The position numbers and the translations under genes were made by a program. From sequence record PV467748.1: a DNA stretch of 64,000 bases; one strand, given 5' to 3'. The notes under the pieces were generated by a model that worked only from the letters and a program-made list of their open reading frames with translations, was not told where the DNA came from and ran no database searches. Below are positions 4,630-38,295 of the stretch, one piece after another. Position 1 is the stretch's first letter. Every line of letters begins with the position of its first letter. This DNA comes from a phage.

Positions 4630-4671
4630 ATGTTCTCCTCAGTTGGTTCATTTTATCATCCGAATATAAAG

Positions 4672-4692
4672 CAAAAAAGGAGCCTAAGCTCC
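4672..4692 (-). terminator. intrinsic-terminator-like hairpin (GGAGC-TTAG-GCTCC then U-run on minus strand)
   Basis: Plus sequence caaaaaaggagcctaagctcc read on the minus strand gives stem-loop followed by TTTTTTG. Confidence 0.45.
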
Positions 4693-19016: not shown

Positions 19017-19199
19017 TTATGCTTTCAACTCATTAAGATACTCAACCAATGCCGCTTTAGAGTTATCCAAATCTCGTTTACACTGCTCTATTGCGGAATA
19101 TGAATAGCCTTCACAATGTTCTACTGCACTATCATAAGAATCACGTTCAATAGCAGTAGCCAGTTTAAGGATTTGTTCAATCTGTTCAGTAGTTAACAT
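19017..19199 (-). CDS. hypothetical protein (60 aa)
   Basis: Track ORF. Confidence 0.4.
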   Translation of the reverse strand: MLTTEQIEQILKLATAIERDSYDSAVEHCEGYSYSAIEQCKRDLDNSKAALVEYLNELKA

Positions 19200-31721: not shown

Positions 31722-31961
31722 TTAAATTTCAGCAACGTAATCGTTATGCAATTCCCACATATCATCAGAATTATTCTTAATGATAGGAATTATCTCATTA
31801 GAGATTTCTTCTGCATAAGGGTCATTGATACAGTGAGCATCTTCAAAACTAACACCGTAATCAGACTTCTTATAGGCAAAGCCATAAATCTTTTTAAACT
31901 TGACACGACTAATTCGTACCGGCTCATCAGACTTATCAGACAATGGAGAGTAATACCACAT
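31722..31961 (-). CDS. hypothetical protein (79 aa)
   Basis: Track ORF. Confidence 0.45.
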   Translation of the reverse strand: MWYYSPLSDKSDEPVRISRVKFKKIYGFAYKKSDYGVSFEDAHCINDPYAEEISNEIIPIIKNNSDDMWELHNDYVAEI

Positions 31962-32002
31962 ATGTTCTCCTCGTTTGTGTAGGGTAATAGTAACATGATT
32001 TT

Positions 32003-32332
32003 CTAGAGTTGTACATCACTTCTGCAATATTCTAAAAATAATTTATCATTGTCTACTGTATCCCAACGACGCCAAGATGGGTTCCAGACCAAAGCGTTGT
32101 CACCACAATCATTGAGCTTAAAATGGTCGTAGTACATAGCTATATGTCTGGTTTCGTCGCCAGAGAACCCTAGTATAGGCTCACCATGAGTATGATACAT
32201 ATGATGGTGCATTGAGAGGTCGCATTTGTAAAACATCTCACGTTTACCACGAATGAACAAGAAAGCTTGACCATTCATATAGAATTCTTTATCTGTTTTC
32301 AAAAGATATTTGAATACCGAATCTTTATGCAT
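32003..32332 (-). CDS. hypothetical His-rich protein
   Basis: Track ORF 32003..32347 trimmed to ATG (MHKDSVFKYL...); contains HHHMYHTH. Confidence 0.4.
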   Translation of the reverse strand: MHKDSVFKYLLKTDKEFYMNGQAFLFIRGKREMFYKCDLSMHHHMYHTHGEPILGFSGDETRHIAMYYDHFKLNDCGDNALVWNPSWRRWDTVDNDKLFLEYCRSDVQL

Positions 32333-32362
32333 AAGTCCTCCTACCACATCCTTGTGGTTAAA

Positions 32363-32590
32363 TTATTTTCCTAACGAAACACGAGTAGGTTTTTTACCAA
32401 AATAGTCTTCATAAGACCCATCTAAACGACCTGCTTTAGACCGACAATATGAATCGTACTTTTTGTAATAAGACATCTCAGTATTATACCGCGGGTGTCT
32501 ATCAGACATAATAATACTTAACGGCCAACCTTTGGCATAATCGCGAAGACCATTTATTTTACGAATGTATCTTTTCTTTAATTTTAGCAT
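32363..32590 (-). CDS. hypothetical basic protein (75 aa)
   Basis: Track ORF. Confidence 0.4.
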   Translation of the reverse strand: MLKLKKRYIRKINGLRDYAKGWPLSIIMSDRHPRYNTEMSYYKKYDSYCRSKAGRLDGSYEDYFGKKPTRVSLGK

Positions 32591-32808
32591 GAGCTCGGAT
32601 ACCAGATTTTACCATCGGCCTGGGCAACGAAGGTACGACCAGCTTCTTCACCATAACAAGAGCTATTCAGCCAATCTTCGAGACGAACTTCGCCGTCATA
32701 ATCGTCGAGCTCAACACCAAAACTTTGAGCAGAAGCCATATCTTTTACTTTCTTATACAGTGCAGCCAGTTCAAGTGCCGCTTTTTCTAATTCATTAATA
32801 TCAGACAT
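32584..32808 (-). CDS. small protein, paralog family member 4 (C-terminus ...YPSSC)
   Basis: Track ORF 32584..32958 trimmed to internal ATG (MSDINELEKAALELAALYKK...). Confidence 0.45.
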   Translation of the reverse strand: MSDINELEKAALELAALYKKVKDMASAQSFGVELDDYDGEVRLEDWLNSSCYGEEAGRTFVAQADGKIWYPSSC

Positions 32809-32818
32809 TTTTATCGCC

Positions 32819-33031
32819 TTAGCAAGACATAGAGGATGTAAACCAGAAACCTTCACCATCCGGGATACCGTAATCATCACGGGCCCATTCATAATCATCA
32901 TATTCCGGATTCTTTGGAGAAATGTATTGTCCACGACCAGAAACATGGAACTCTTCACCCGTTTCGTCAGCCACGGCCTGGCCTTTACGTACTAATTCGC
33001 GGATTTGTTTTTCAATTTCATCAATAGTCAT
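32819..33031 (-). CDS. small protein, paralog family member 3 (C-terminus ...FTSSMSC)
   Basis: 70-aa track ORF with SD AAGGAAATAAA upstream. Confidence 0.5.
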   Translation of the reverse strand: MTIDEIEKQIRELVRKGQAVADETGEEFHVSGRGQYISPKNPEYDDYEWARDDYGIPDGEGFWFTSSMSC

Positions 33032-33040
33032 TTTATTTCC

Positions 33041-33322
33041 TTAACATTCAGAAGAAGAGGACACCCAACCGCCATTTTCTAGGCTGGTGGTGTAATCATG
33101 CTGGTTTACAATAGCGTACTGGGCTTCACCGTATTCTTCCCAGTGGGCAAGGTCGGCTTTCAAGGCGCCAGGAGAATAATAGTCACCGCCCATACCGCGA
33201 GCAGGGTATATATTAAAATGAGTCTCATATTTGTCAGCAATTTCCTCAGCACGACGAATAGCTTTGTGGATATCATTTACTGCGTCAGCCAGCTCTTTAT
33301 TTTTATGGTAATCATTCATCAT
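33041..33322 (-). CDS. small protein, paralog family member 2 (C-terminus ...VSSSSEC)
   Basis: 93-aa track ORF; shares the EEIADKY motif with member 1. Confidence 0.5.
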   Translation of the reverse strand: MMNDYHKNKELADAVNDIHKAIRRAEEIADKYETHFNIYPARGMGGDYYSPGALKADLAHWEEYGEAQYAIVNQHDYTTSLENGGWVSSSSEC

Positions 33323-33331
33323 AAAATTTCC

Positions 33332-33622
33332 TTAGCACATTGCCGAAGAGGAGATCCAAGCACCAACTGTAACGACGCCATTTTCAACTTCACCACCGTT
33401 GTTTTCAATTTCATCTTTAAACCACTGGGAGCATTCATAACCAACAGGGTAGTATGTACGTCCTGAGCCATAATCACCTGTTCCGAATTGAATACCGTAC
33501 TTATCGGCAATAGCTTCACATTTGGATTCGATGGTATCCACTTTATTCAGAAGAGCATAGATAGCCTTTTCTGCAGATTTCTCGTCGTTGTGTTCTGGGA
33601 TTTCGATTTCAATTTTATTCAT
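33332..33622 (-). CDS. small protein, paralog family member 1 (C-terminus ...ISSSAMC)
   Basis: 96-aa track ORF; EAIADKYGIQF motif; GGWxSSSxxC-type C-terminus. Confidence 0.5.
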   Translation of the reverse strand: MNKIEIEIPEHNDEKSAEKAIYALLNKVDTIESKCEAIADKYGIQFGTGDYGSGRTYYPVGYECSQWFKDEIENNGGEVENGVVTVGAWISSSAMC

Positions 33623-33969
33623 GATTTACATTCCTTAATAAAGGTTTCAAGGTCATTACGTTTGGTTTGTTTTACATACTCATTATAATTAGCCATCTCT
33701 AAAGCATATCTCTTTTTACGCGGCTTGTTTATCCTATTGGTGTTGATAATATCCAAGACCAGAGGGATAAAGTATCCTATTAAAGCTGGAACCCAAATCC
33801 AGGCAAGGTTCAATTCAAATAGGTTTTGTGTCGTATCATTAACGACTCCACCAGCAATTAGTCCAACAAATCCGGCAATCGTACCAGTGACAAGTCCAGC
33901 GAATAAAGAAATAGCGATATCATAATCTGCTAATGCGTAACCAGGGTCGGTTTTACTAGGCTTATACAT
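33619..33969 (-). CDS. membrane protein (~116 aa) with C-terminal tail ...DLETFIKECKS
   Basis: Track ORF 33619..34005 trimmed to ATG (MYKPSKTDPG...); TM helices then basic tail. Confidence 0.5.
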   Translation of the reverse strand: MYKPSKTDPGYALADYDIAISLFAGLVTGTIAGFVGLIAGGVVNDTTQNLFELNLAWIWVPALIGYFIPLVLDIINTNRINKPRKKRYALEMANYNEYVKQTKRNDLETFIKECKS

Positions 33970-35159: not shown

Positions 35160-35216
35160 TGGTATTTTGTAATCCATGAGGACATTATACCCTGTCCTCT
35201 GAGGGGTGTAAACATT
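35160..35216 (-). promoter_or_regulatory. early promoter (-35 GTTTAC, 18-bp spacer, -10 TATAAT) with arms GAGGAC/GTCCTC flanking the -10
   Basis: Minus-strand read GTTTACACCCCTCAGAGGACAGGGTATAATGTCCTCATGG. Confidence 0.55.
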
Positions 35217-35617: not shown

Positions 35618-35675
35618 TATGTTCTCCTCAAATTATGGGCTCATAATATCTTAATCATGGGCCCATGTAAACGTT

Positions 35676-36062: not shown

Positions 36063-36617
36063 TCAGTTCTTGTAGAACCGGAATGGGTTTATGTGGAAGG
36101 CTAACATAGCCTTAGGGATTTTACGAGACAAAAGGCTCTTAAGCTTCCAACCACAGTACACGCGAAGGTAAAAGGTAATCCCACCAACCTTAAGATATGG
36201 AACTGAAGCAAATACACCCCAGGCGTCGTCATTCCACATCCATAACCACCCGTGATGAGCTTTATCAGGAGAACCGGATTCCACGTCGGGATTACCTCGA
36301 TAATGGAATTCCGAGCTACAATCACGACCGAGTTTATGGTAAGCAAAGTTATAAGCTTTATTTCGCCATAGCCAAGCTACTCTCTGAAGATAAACGCCGC
36401 CCGGCATTTTCCTGATGTTAGCCCAACGTTTAATATGACCTTTATCACCGTCAATTGGATTATCGTATGTCATCATCCAATCAAAGCCGTACGGTAATTT
36501 ACCTGTCTTTTTATTGTGGAAAGGAACCACAAATGGTGCAAGGATAACAGCCAGAACCATAGAGATAAAATCTAGTGGGACCAACAGAACCCAACTCAAA
36601 TATTTTAAAAGTTTCAT
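36063..36617 (-). CDS. membrane-anchored Trp-rich protein (~185 aa)
   Basis: Track ORF 36063..36722 trimmed to ATG (MKLLKYLSWVLLVPLDFISMVLAVILAPFVVPF...) downstream of the terminator at 36635. Confidence 0.45.
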   Translation of the reverse strand: MKLLKYLSWVLLVPLDFISMVLAVILAPFVVPFHNKKTGKLPYGFDWMMTYDNPIDGDKGHIKRWANIRKMPGGVYLQRVAWLWRNKAYNFAYHKLGRDCSSEFHYRGNPDVESGSPDKAHHGWLWMWNDDAWGVFASVPYLKVGGITFYLRVYCGWKLKSLLSRKIPKAMLAFHINPFRFYKN

Positions 36618-37576: not shown

Positions 37577-37651
37577 TGGTATCCCGCCCTGGGATCGAAC
37601 CAGGACCGCAAACTTAGAAGGATCGTATGCTATCCATTACACCAGCGGGAC
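37577..37651 (-). tRNA. tRNA-Arg (anticodon UCU)
   Basis: Minus-strand GTCCCGCTGGTGTAATGGATAGCATACGATCCTTCTAAGTTTGCGGTCCTGGTTCGATCCCAGGCGGGATACCA; anticodon loop CTTCTAA; T-loop TTCGATC; encoded CCA. Confidence 0.65.
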
Positions 37652-37656
37652 GTAGT

Positions 37657-37733
37657 TGGTGACCCAGACCAGATTTGAACTGGTAACCTTTCCCTTATGA
37701 GGGGACTGCTGCTAACCATTGAGCTACAGGGCC
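37657..37733 (-). tRNA. tRNA with CAU anticodon (Ile-lysidine type or Met)
   Basis: Minus-strand GGCCCTGTAGCTCAATGGTTAGCAGCAGTCCCCTCATAAGGGAAAGGTTACCAGTTCAAATCTGGTCTGGGTCACCA; anticodon loop CTCATAA; T-arm ACCAG-TTCAAAT-CTGGT. Confidence 0.6.
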
Positions 37734-37818
37734 TTAATTCTATTATGAAAGGCTCTTTGAGGGAAGAACCTTTGGTAATAGAGGGTATTAATGATAGAGT
37801 AATAATATCATATAATTC

Positions 37819-38295
37819 TTAAAGCATATCAAGTGCTTTCACATCAGGAATTTTAATTTCTTCTTCAATGATATACAGCTTGACATAAGAAATTACACGG
37901 ATAAAATCGCCATCATATTCACAAGCCATACCAAGGAGCTCAGTAAGGGCTTCATTCAAGTAGTATTCTTCCTCGTCGTCATTCAGCAAAGCTTCTAAGT
38001 CTTGGACCCAAAGGACTTTATCTAAAAATTCAGGAGTCAACTGGCCTGATTTTACACCAGATTCAATGTGAGCAATAACCAAGTGCTTAACTACGTCCCA
38101 TTCCGAATTACCACATTTATCCGGGTTGTTGCAATGCGAACCATGGAAAAGTTCTAGGATATATTTGTACTGTTGGATTTCATGTTCTTCTACGCCAAAT
38201 ACAGTCTGGGTTTTATAGTTATCGCCATCATTTTCCCAGGTTTCAATTTCAATCGCATAACCTTTAGGGATAGTTTGTCCGAATTTAATATTCAT
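37819..38295 (-). CDS. hypothetical acidic protein (~158 aa)
   Basis: Track ORF 37819..38304 trimmed to ATG (MNIKFGQTIPKG...). Confidence 0.45.
   Translation of the reverse strand: MNIKFGQTIPKGYAIEIETWENDGDNYKTQTVFGVEEHEIQQYKYILELFHGSHCNNPDKCGNSEWDVVKHLVIAHIESGVKSGQLTPEFLDKVLWVQDLEALLNDDEEEYYLNEALTELLGMACEYDGDFIRVISYVKLYIIEEEIKIPDVKALDML

Follow-up and report, generated by a model that had tools for sequence, protein, structure and literature searches.

Why would a T4-type phage carry four small genes in a row whose products all end in a serine-rich sequence with cysteine as the very last residue? We addressed this question for a stretch of 64,000 nucleotides (here called the window) from the phage sequence record PV467748.1, of which positions 32,363 to 33,622 are displayed. 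The source phage is a JS98-like T4-type coliphage of the genus Dhakavirus, and the 4 kb around the gene array are 91-95% identical to the phages fDHCT2, CLB_P2, JS98 and Bp7. We found that the four genes belong to a single phage family marked by its C-terminal tail, and that their relatives lie beside a gene for a larger protein with the domains DUF7277 and DUF7275. The array may represent the variable-copy part of a conserved two-part phage module, in which a putative DUF7277-DUF7275 enzyme would be the other part.

Four paralogues with a cysteine-terminated tail

The original prediction, made from the letters alone, described four consecutive small open reading frames (ORFs) with Cys-terminal tails. 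This arrangement was confirmed on the minus strand, and we refer to the genes, in their order along that strand, as paralogues A to D:

33332-33622, minus strand: paralogue A, 96 amino acids, C-terminus GAWISSSAMC, phrog_899 match with E = 2.1e-23
33041-33322, minus strand: paralogue B, 93 amino acids, C-terminus GGWVSSSSEC, phrog_899 match with E = 1.5e-20
32819-33031, minus strand: paralogue C, 70 amino acids, C-terminus GFWFTSSMSC, phrog_899 match with E = 2.9e-14
32584-32808, minus strand: paralogue D, 74 amino acids from the ATG at 32808, C-terminus KIWYPSSC, phrog_899 match with E = 1.4e-9
32656-32673, minus strand: second copy of the tail inside D, W-L-N-S-S-C, residues 46-51, read from the sequence

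All four proteins match one profile over their full length, that of phrog_899, a cluster of unknown function. With E values from 2e-23 to 1.4e-9, the suggested paralogy holds beyond chance, and the shared (E/A)IADKY motif is present as EAIADKYG in A and EEIADKYE in B. The ORF list also holds a longer, GTG-started version of paralogue D.

The C-terminal signature of the family reads G-x-W-x-S-S-S-x-x-Cys, with Cys as the last residue. Paralogues A, B and C carry its 8-residue form, and D has a shortened W-x-P-S-S-C in addition to the internal W-L-N-S-S-C. A regular expression for the tail, run over the six frames of the 64-kb window, matched these four ORFs only. When a profile built from the window copies was searched against 1.8 billion representative proteins, it returned 180 matches at E values up to 1e-3, nearly all of them 70-140 amino acids long and aligned as far as their last residue. 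Clustered at 50% identity, the family comprises more than 175 representatives, and a second protein search gave more than 330 clusters, all hypothetical and free of any Pfam domain. The terminal Cys, which had been flagged as notable, proved to be a hallmark of the family: it closes 175 of the 188 small family matches, and most of the exceptions have a single extra residue. Counting back from this Cys in the 175 proteins, the Trp at -7 and the Ser at -4 are each present in 174 and the Ser at -3 in 173, with Gly dominant at -9. Several much larger proteins among the profile matches (1,300-1,600 amino acids) were discarded as false positives with Ser/Thr-rich immunoglobulin repeats.

Upstream of the tail, the family body is built in a constant order, from a long helix at the N-terminus, which closes with A-[IV]-A-D-x-x-G, through x-F and a Gly-rich Y-G-[MS]-G-[GR]-x-Y-Y-P hairpin, to a variable acidic stretch; paralogue D lacks the Gly-rich loop. 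An AlphaFold2 model from 46 sequences gave an alpha/beta fold with a predicted local distance difference test score (pLDDT) of 92 and a predicted template modelling score of 0.78. The last six residues averaged a pLDDT of 77, so the tail is placed less firmly than the core. The search of the PDB with the family yielded no match for the predicted fold, and neither Pfam nor NCBIfam returned anything significant for the four proteins or for distant members. The best PDB profile match, lacto-N-biose phosphorylase (2zus/3wfz, residues 647-704; E = 0.14), was the only one covering both family motifs, with DYGKGRGVY...WSSSNPEC aligned across a domain boundary, and we judged it coincidental. We also rejected T4 Tk.1 and Tk.2 as members: they resemble the N-terminal helix only (E = 0.037 to 0.4) and have neither the Gly-rich loop nor the Cys tail. 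The window holds a Tk.1/Tk.2 homologue at 19017-19199 with the same weak helix likeness (T4 tk.1 and tk.2 lie at 347-723 of our locus L003).

We considered whether the motif could originate at the DNA level, from an overlapping ribosome-binding site (RBS). As had been proposed, it does not. The codons at the Ser positions of the tail vary across copies (TCC, TCT, TCG, AGC, TCA and ACA), and the motif is kept in single-copy homologues with unrelated downstream genes; we conclude that it is selected at the protein level. Many family members repeat the W-x-S-S-(x)-C unit internally. Moreover, hhalign aligns a fifth type of array protein found in related phages (copy E, described below) with the family through its last 16 residues alone (probability 87%), the N-terminal body being unrelated. 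To judge from copy E and the internal repeats, the tail appears to be a portable module. Mini-ORFs of about 50 amino acids in two other loci (L020, 9123-9287; L025, 683-841) consist of a helical 'ALELLRSG...EEQR' insert and a W-x-x-S-S-C end, and they adjoin full-length family members bearing the same insert, which we take as further evidence of a portable tail.

With moderate-to-low confidence, we regard the Ser/Cys tail as a candidate functional site. One conceivable use would be that of a peptide precursor, a ribosomally synthesized and post-translationally modified peptide (RiPP) whose tail is cyclised or cross-linked, possibly from Trp to Cys. The S(-3) and W(-7) positions, invariant or nearly so, together with the terminal Cys, place an S/T-x-x-C unit at the very C-terminus. 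The Ser19...Cys22 pair of epidermin, which forms aminovinyl-cysteine, has the same spacing as S-x-x-C-COOH, as in EpiD/LanD substrates. However, the array proteins are folded domains of 65-140 amino acids (pLDDT 92) and not a leader with a short core; the neighbours that were scanned carry DUFs or nothing, with no Pfam domain of the radical-SAM, LanB/LanD or YcaO type (the rest of the genome lay outside the scan); and apart from DUF7275 the neighbours differ between lineages. We consider a RiPP-like role very improbable. Most family members have a single Cys. The thiol and carboxylate of the terminal Cys, perhaps helped by Asp40, Tyr57 and the Gly-rich loop, could instead form the binding site for a thiol partner, a metal or a ligand resembling a nucleotide, so that the proteins would serve as a sponge, a chaperone or a redox shuttle. 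This we hold to be quite unlikely.

The small genes adjoin a DUF7277-DUF7275 gene

The link to the larger gene was first seen in two metagenomic homologues lying directly upstream of it. The corresponding features downstream of the array in the window are:

31722-32590, minus strand: three lineage-specific small genes between the array and the larger gene, encoding 75 (phrog_7065), 109 (phrog_9796) and 79 (phrog_3723) amino acids
30561-31520, minus strand: DUF7277-DUF7275 gene, 319 amino acids, phrog_2141, Pfam E = 1.8e-26 and 1.9e-77 for the two domains

In 11 of 11 Dhakavirus loci the DUF7277-DUF7275 gene lies on the same strand as the array, 0.26-1.1 kb downstream. The three intervening genes are fewer or absent in other lineages, where the array abuts the larger gene. 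Adjacency or near adjacency was found in Mosigvirus, Marfavirus, Tulanevirus, Hadassahvirus and Otagovirus, in an Erwinia jumbo phage, in Phapecoctavirus ESCO13, in Shewanella phage Thanatos-1 and in two metagenomic lineages; in Stenotrophomonas phage Mendera the order is reversed, with the small genes downstream. Copies of the D type stand directly beside the larger gene in Thanatos-1 and ESCO13. We also fetched 13 IMG/VR loci by a DNA pattern specific to the small family and hence blind to the larger gene. Three of them end before the relevant side, and the DUF7277-DUF7275 gene is downstream in the other ten (10/10), at a gap of 2-90 bp in eight and of 687 bp in two. Small and large genes form a co-oriented pair with a gap of 2-90 bp in most lineages. 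The larger gene lies beside the small ones in every evaluable locus, and all other neighbours vary by lineage.

KVP40-like phages, Vibrio phage K406 and phages of Streptomyces and Gordonia have shorter homologues of the larger protein (250-270 amino acids, identity no higher than 35%) and no small partner close to them, and among the evaluable loci we never saw the small genes without the larger one. The dependence therefore seems to run one way.

These data bear on the possibility that the paralogues are free-standing binders for host takeover or anti-defence, such as nucleic-acid mimics or decoys, each stoichiometrically inhibiting a different host protein, in which case the DUF7275 link would reflect no more than a shared early accessory block. 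Their small size and net charge (-8 to -9 for the window copies; family median -9), their place in an early or middle region among small accessory genes, a copy number that changes from 1 to 5 between phages, and the confinement of variability to the N-terminal helix and acidic loops would all fit. Yet the acidity is not extreme among the small ORFs of this phage: the array genes have charge densities of -0.09 to -0.13, and the 10th percentile of those ORFs is -0.14. No diversifying selection was detected, the adjacency to one particular gene at every evaluable locus is left unexplained, and the tail is invariant across phages of Escherichia, Acinetobacter, Pseudomonas, Aeromonas and Stenotrophomonas hosts, which points to a universally conserved partner. 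Since the tail is unchanged across hosts, strictly C-terminal, modular and modelled with lower confidence than the core, we favour a site for such a partner over a surface that chases host defences. Free-standing binders are possible but, in our view, doubtful. Owing to the invariable link to the DUF7277-DUF7275 gene, a modification or partner role for the tail seems likelier than a free-standing one.

Other genes recur near the larger gene. In the window, genes for transfer RNAs (tRNAs), tRNA-Arg(TCT) at 37577-37651 and tRNA-Met(CAT) at 37657-37733, both on the minus strand, lie about 4 kb upstream of the array, and Thanatos-1 has this tRNA pair immediately after its DUF7275 gene (locus L040, 3959-4106). 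Elsewhere the larger gene has genes for RNA ligase or polynucleotide kinase in its vicinity (Hallingskeid, Annadreamy) or lies near a cluster of tRNAs (OneUp). Such neighbours may hint at an RNA- or tRNA-related role of the putative enzyme. Genes for Gad2-like (anti-Gabija), Sir2-like and nicotinamide adenine dinucleotide salvage proteins (nicotinamide phosphoribosyltransferase) recur within a few kb in several lineages (L034, 10139-10339; L036, 7200-8331; L037, 6975-7640; L018, 1-332; L042, 508-2163), so the module sits in counter-defence or auxiliary-metabolism neighbourhoods.

The DUF7277-DUF7275 protein is a candidate nucleotidyltransferase

We next looked at the larger protein itself. About 60 invariant residues, with many polar ones among them, are common to 9-21 diverse DUF7277-DUF7275 homologues. 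The N-terminus reads MLVIGSRAL...SDWDFI, and in a set of 15 diverse homologues G5, S6, D24 and D26 never change, with conservation of at least 90% at E68. The spacing from GS to DxD is 10-13 residues in most homologues and 17 in those of T4-type phages. These residues fit the pattern hG[GS], 9-17 residues, DxD and a third carboxylate on a predicted strand, and hG[GS]...DxD...E is the signature of the Pol-beta-type nucleotidyltransferase superfamily. Two GenBank records label homologues 'putative nucleotidyltransferase'. The C-terminal DUF7275 domain abounds in invariant His, Asp, Arg and Lys (SHRF, HP, YDHDSIHE, VCTSITSGWFRE) and is helical in a single-sequence AlphaFold2 model of low quality (pLDDT 38). 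Together, these features suggest that the partner is a probable Pol-beta-type nucleotidyltransferase.

Could the pair then be a toxin-antitoxin or effector-immunity-like system, in which a nucleotidyltransferase effector acts on host tRNA or protein and the small acidic proteins are its inhibitors or timers? One or more small acidic genes directly upstream of a larger enzyme gene, often with a gap of 2-60 bp, would suit this reading; type II and type VII pairs, for instance AbiEi/AbiEii and MntA/HepT, are classically laid out with a small gene followed by a large one. Some phages also have the putative enzyme and no small genes, and we never observed the converse. On the other hand, there would be up to five non-redundant 'antitoxins' per enzyme, phages with the enzyme gene alone would carry an unregulated toxin, the small genes of Mendera lie downstream of the enzyme gene, and the signature of the family, judged by one pattern, is found in phage contigs and in none of the bacterial and archaeal genomes. 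We consider such a pair unlikely.

Copy number, divergence and selection

Similar arrays were looked for in related phages and found. Nine of 11 Dhakavirus genomes have five copies in the order A-B-E-C-D, and the window and one other genome are without copy E (65 amino acids, PHROG 4882, C-terminus WVSSSYEC). Comparison with these relatives places the absent gene at one junction:

33031-33043, minus strand: junction of B and C, the site of the absent fifth copy E

The unit absent here measures 207 bp and is flanked by the near-identical 3' ends of B and E, about 35 nucleotides long, plus a TAAGGnAAT junction. With these near-identical, motif-coding 3' ends on either side, the loss of copy E from the window is a clear instance of unequal recombination. 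The tandem organisation is not peculiar to this genus: pairs to quintets recur in unrelated lineages, with four copies in Otagovirus, three in ESCO13, three in Mendera and two or three in several metagenomic phages, and the copy number ranges from 1 to 5 between phages.

The copies themselves are old. Within the window, pairwise alignment gives 21-39% identity to D and 20-27% for B to D against A, and a recent duplication was ruled out, the copies sharing at the DNA level only a stop/RBS junction of about 12 nucleotides. Mosigvirus and Marfavirus have copies that can be assigned to types A, B, D and E; for A and B the measured identity is 55-61% (55-60% for the B orthologues). Subtypes A to E are older than the split of several phage genera. 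As regards recent evolution, the original prediction of a diversifying family does not hold: purifying selection acts on all the orthologue groups, with ratios of non-synonymous to synonymous substitution of 0.14-0.18 for A, about 0.21 for B, 0.08 for E, about 0.25 for C and about 0.09 for D, and an overall range of 0.08-0.25; C is the most variable group. Substitutions between orthologues concentrate in the first half of the helix and in the loops, and the motifs are invariant.

Putative expression signals point to synthesis before replication

The array lies in an accessory block with e.6 on one side and nudE/e on the other. The following features bear on its expression; the promoters are consensus matches only:

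33619-33969, minus strand: small membrane-protein gene upstream of A, 116 amino acids, phrog_2330
33682-33708, minus strand: MotA-type middle promoter, TATGCTTTA-N12-TATAAT, perfect match
36186-36212, 37802-37828 and 4650-4675, minus strand, which is the early-transcribed strand, as is that of the match above: the other three MotA-type matches
35184-35212, minus strand: sigma-70-type early-like promoter, TTTACA-17-TATAAT, matching at 11 of 12 positions

The ATG of gene A overlaps the stop codon of the membrane-protein gene (ATGA), an arrangement for translational coupling, and the Shine-Dalgarno sequence of each array gene starts within the TAA stop of the preceding gene, in the form TGC/TGT-TAA-GGA. 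At the far end of the array, the end of D (TCA TGC TAA, 32584-32590) holds the ATG of the next gene (75 amino acids, phrog_7065). The Cys codon of D doubles as part of that start codon, which suggests translational coupling here as well.

The MotA-dependent middle-promoter pattern of T4, [AT][AT]TGCTT[TC]A-N11-13-TAnnnT, occurs four times on the window's minus strand, compared with an expectation of 0.31 from shuffling, and not once on the plus strand. The match nearest the array sits within the membrane-protein gene, at its 3' end, and 86 bp separate it from the downstream gene A. The sigma-70-type match at 35212 lies upstream of e.6 and heads the string of genes that contains the array, and a second strong match of this type is found upstream of the array on the minus strand at 35671. 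The late-promoter motif TATAAATA is absent from the array strand between 28.3 and 43.2 kb. In agreement with the early region originally proposed, the array proteins appear, from these promoter matches, to be made before replication.

The same signals speak to a GenBank label. Several homologues of B are called 'tail completion protein', for example in vB_EcoM_005, ABTNLsp5 and UPEC07, and a structural role in the virion would follow if the label were right; the records in which B orthologues bear it include NC_055783, MW149274, PP693301 and MW250787. Neither PHROGs nor Pfam gives a functional match. On this strand one has to leave the interval 28.3-43.2 kb to reach a late-promoter motif, and the promoter matches of the region are of the early and middle types. 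The proteins are acidic, multi-copy and 70-96 amino acids long, and their genes stand in the e.6-nudE block and not in the tail gene cluster. A virion role is barely conceivable, and the label is probably a propagated misannotation.

Distribution of the two families

The family appears to be restricted to phages. By tblastn, we found it in Dhakavirus, in Mosigvirus (RB69 type), in Marfavirus and related Klebsiella and Enterobacter phages, in T4-type phages of Serratia, Yersinia, Aeromonas and Acinetobacter, in Pseudomonas Otagovirus and in an Erwinia jumbo phage; BFVD and protein searches added Acidovorax phage ACP17 and Myxococcus phage Mx1. A DNA pattern coding for YGMGGTYYP matched 13 times in viral contigs and not once among 185,579 genomes of bacteria and archaea, an absence that, resting on one pattern, applies to that subtype. 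At least 400 phage records hold the small family and 734 the DUF7277-DUF7275 gene. Carriers of both are large virulent phages of Proteobacteria (T4-type, rV5-type, Otagovirus and jumbo phages), amounting to hundreds of genomes. Within positions 1-78 kb of T4, the stretch that was scanned and that includes the syntenic e-tRNA region, neither family was found, which could be the reason that the module escaped study.

A proposed enzyme-partner module

Considering the conserved pairing, our tentative preference is that the small proteins could be substrates, carriers or adaptors of the DUF7277-DUF7275 enzyme, a possibility that we take seriously without counting it as probable. One enzyme would be paired with one to five small acidic partners, all bearing the same terminal tag. 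In the most concrete version, the Ser/Cys tail would enter the active site and be covalently modified, for example by nucleotidylylation. The modified site might alternatively be the nearly invariant Tyr of the Gly-rich hairpin, by analogy with GlnD/PII, or the small proteins might use the tail for docking, as adaptors or regulatory subunits. Each paralogue would be directed to a different downstream target by its divergent N-terminal helix and its acidic loops. A further step is conceivable: an undescribed phage protein-modification system in which the enzyme loads the Ser/Cys tails of its carriers, by O- or S-nucleotidylylation or by Cys chemistry, and each carrier delivers the group to a different target in early infection. 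This more specific scheme is a speculative one, and we would regard it as rather doubtful.

Several points weigh against an enzyme-partner relationship. Synteny is linkage and not interaction, and could result from co-regulation or co-transfer alone; here, the array and the enzyme gene have three other small genes between them. A simple substrate would not usually exist as five ancient paralogues per enzyme, and the conserved W, F and Y may be purely structural. Searches of the putative enzyme against Pfam, NCBIfam and PDB profiles gave no nucleotidyltransferase match, and when its N-terminal domain was aligned by hhalign with the aminoglycoside nucleotidyltransferases KNTase and AadA, GS and DxD fell in register at a probability of only 0.3%.

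An invariant terminal Trp/Ser/Cys tail and a near-obligate enzyme neighbour with a catalytic-looking acidic triad turn a set of 'hypothetical proteins' into a testable enzyme-partner hypothesis. Should the enzyme indeed modify the tail, phages would encode a new kind of protein modification complete with dedicated carriers, with possible relevance to host takeover or counter-defence. Should the hypothesis fail, there will still be a large family defined together with its signature, and a clear example of how recombination at conserved 3' ends changes copy number.

Comparison with known systems

Literature searches on phrog_899, the RB69 ORFs, DUF7275/DUF7277, the motif strings and C-terminal cysteine combined with nucleotidyltransferase found nothing relevant, and no solved structure or paper was found for either family. 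As far as we know, the tail signature, the mechanism of copy-number change and the near-obligate synteny are new observations, the clusters being present in PHROGs and Pfam only as unknowns. The array genes are direct members of PHROG 899 (copy E of PHROG 4882), together with RB69 ORF136c/137c/139c, JS98 orf126-129 and Aeromonas phage 31 ORF064c; the cluster entry lists hypothetical orthologues only and describes no function, motif or gene context.

In size, negative charge and pre-replicative accessory location the array proteins are reminiscent of Arn of T-even phages and Ocr of T7, to which they have no sequence or fold similarity; to our knowledge, neither Arn nor Ocr ends in a conserved motif, has a constant enzyme gene as its neighbour or belongs to a tandem family. 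A terminal cysteine with a chemical role is familiar from larger enzymes. The C-terminal ...PRIC of HypE is carbamoylated and then cyanated, and class Ia ribonucleotide reductase has a C-terminal Cys pair. The likeness to HypE and NrdA lies in an invariant Cys at the very end of a tail that is less ordered, here by prediction; there is no homology, and these are large enzymes as opposed to proteins of 65-140 amino acids with usually one Cys.

Further parallels are MntA/HepT, a type VII toxin-antitoxin system acting by oligo-AMPylation of Tyr, and GlnD/PII, in which GlnD uridylylates a loop Tyr of PII. As in these systems, the gene for a protein with a GS...DxD...E pattern lies tightly beside genes for small proteins with invariant hydroxyl and thiol residues in a loop and a tail. 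There is no sequence, profile or fold match to MNT, GlnD, HEPN or PII, and the array module differs from both in being confined to phages, in pairing one to five partners with each putative enzyme and in placing the candidate Ser/Cys site at the C-terminus.

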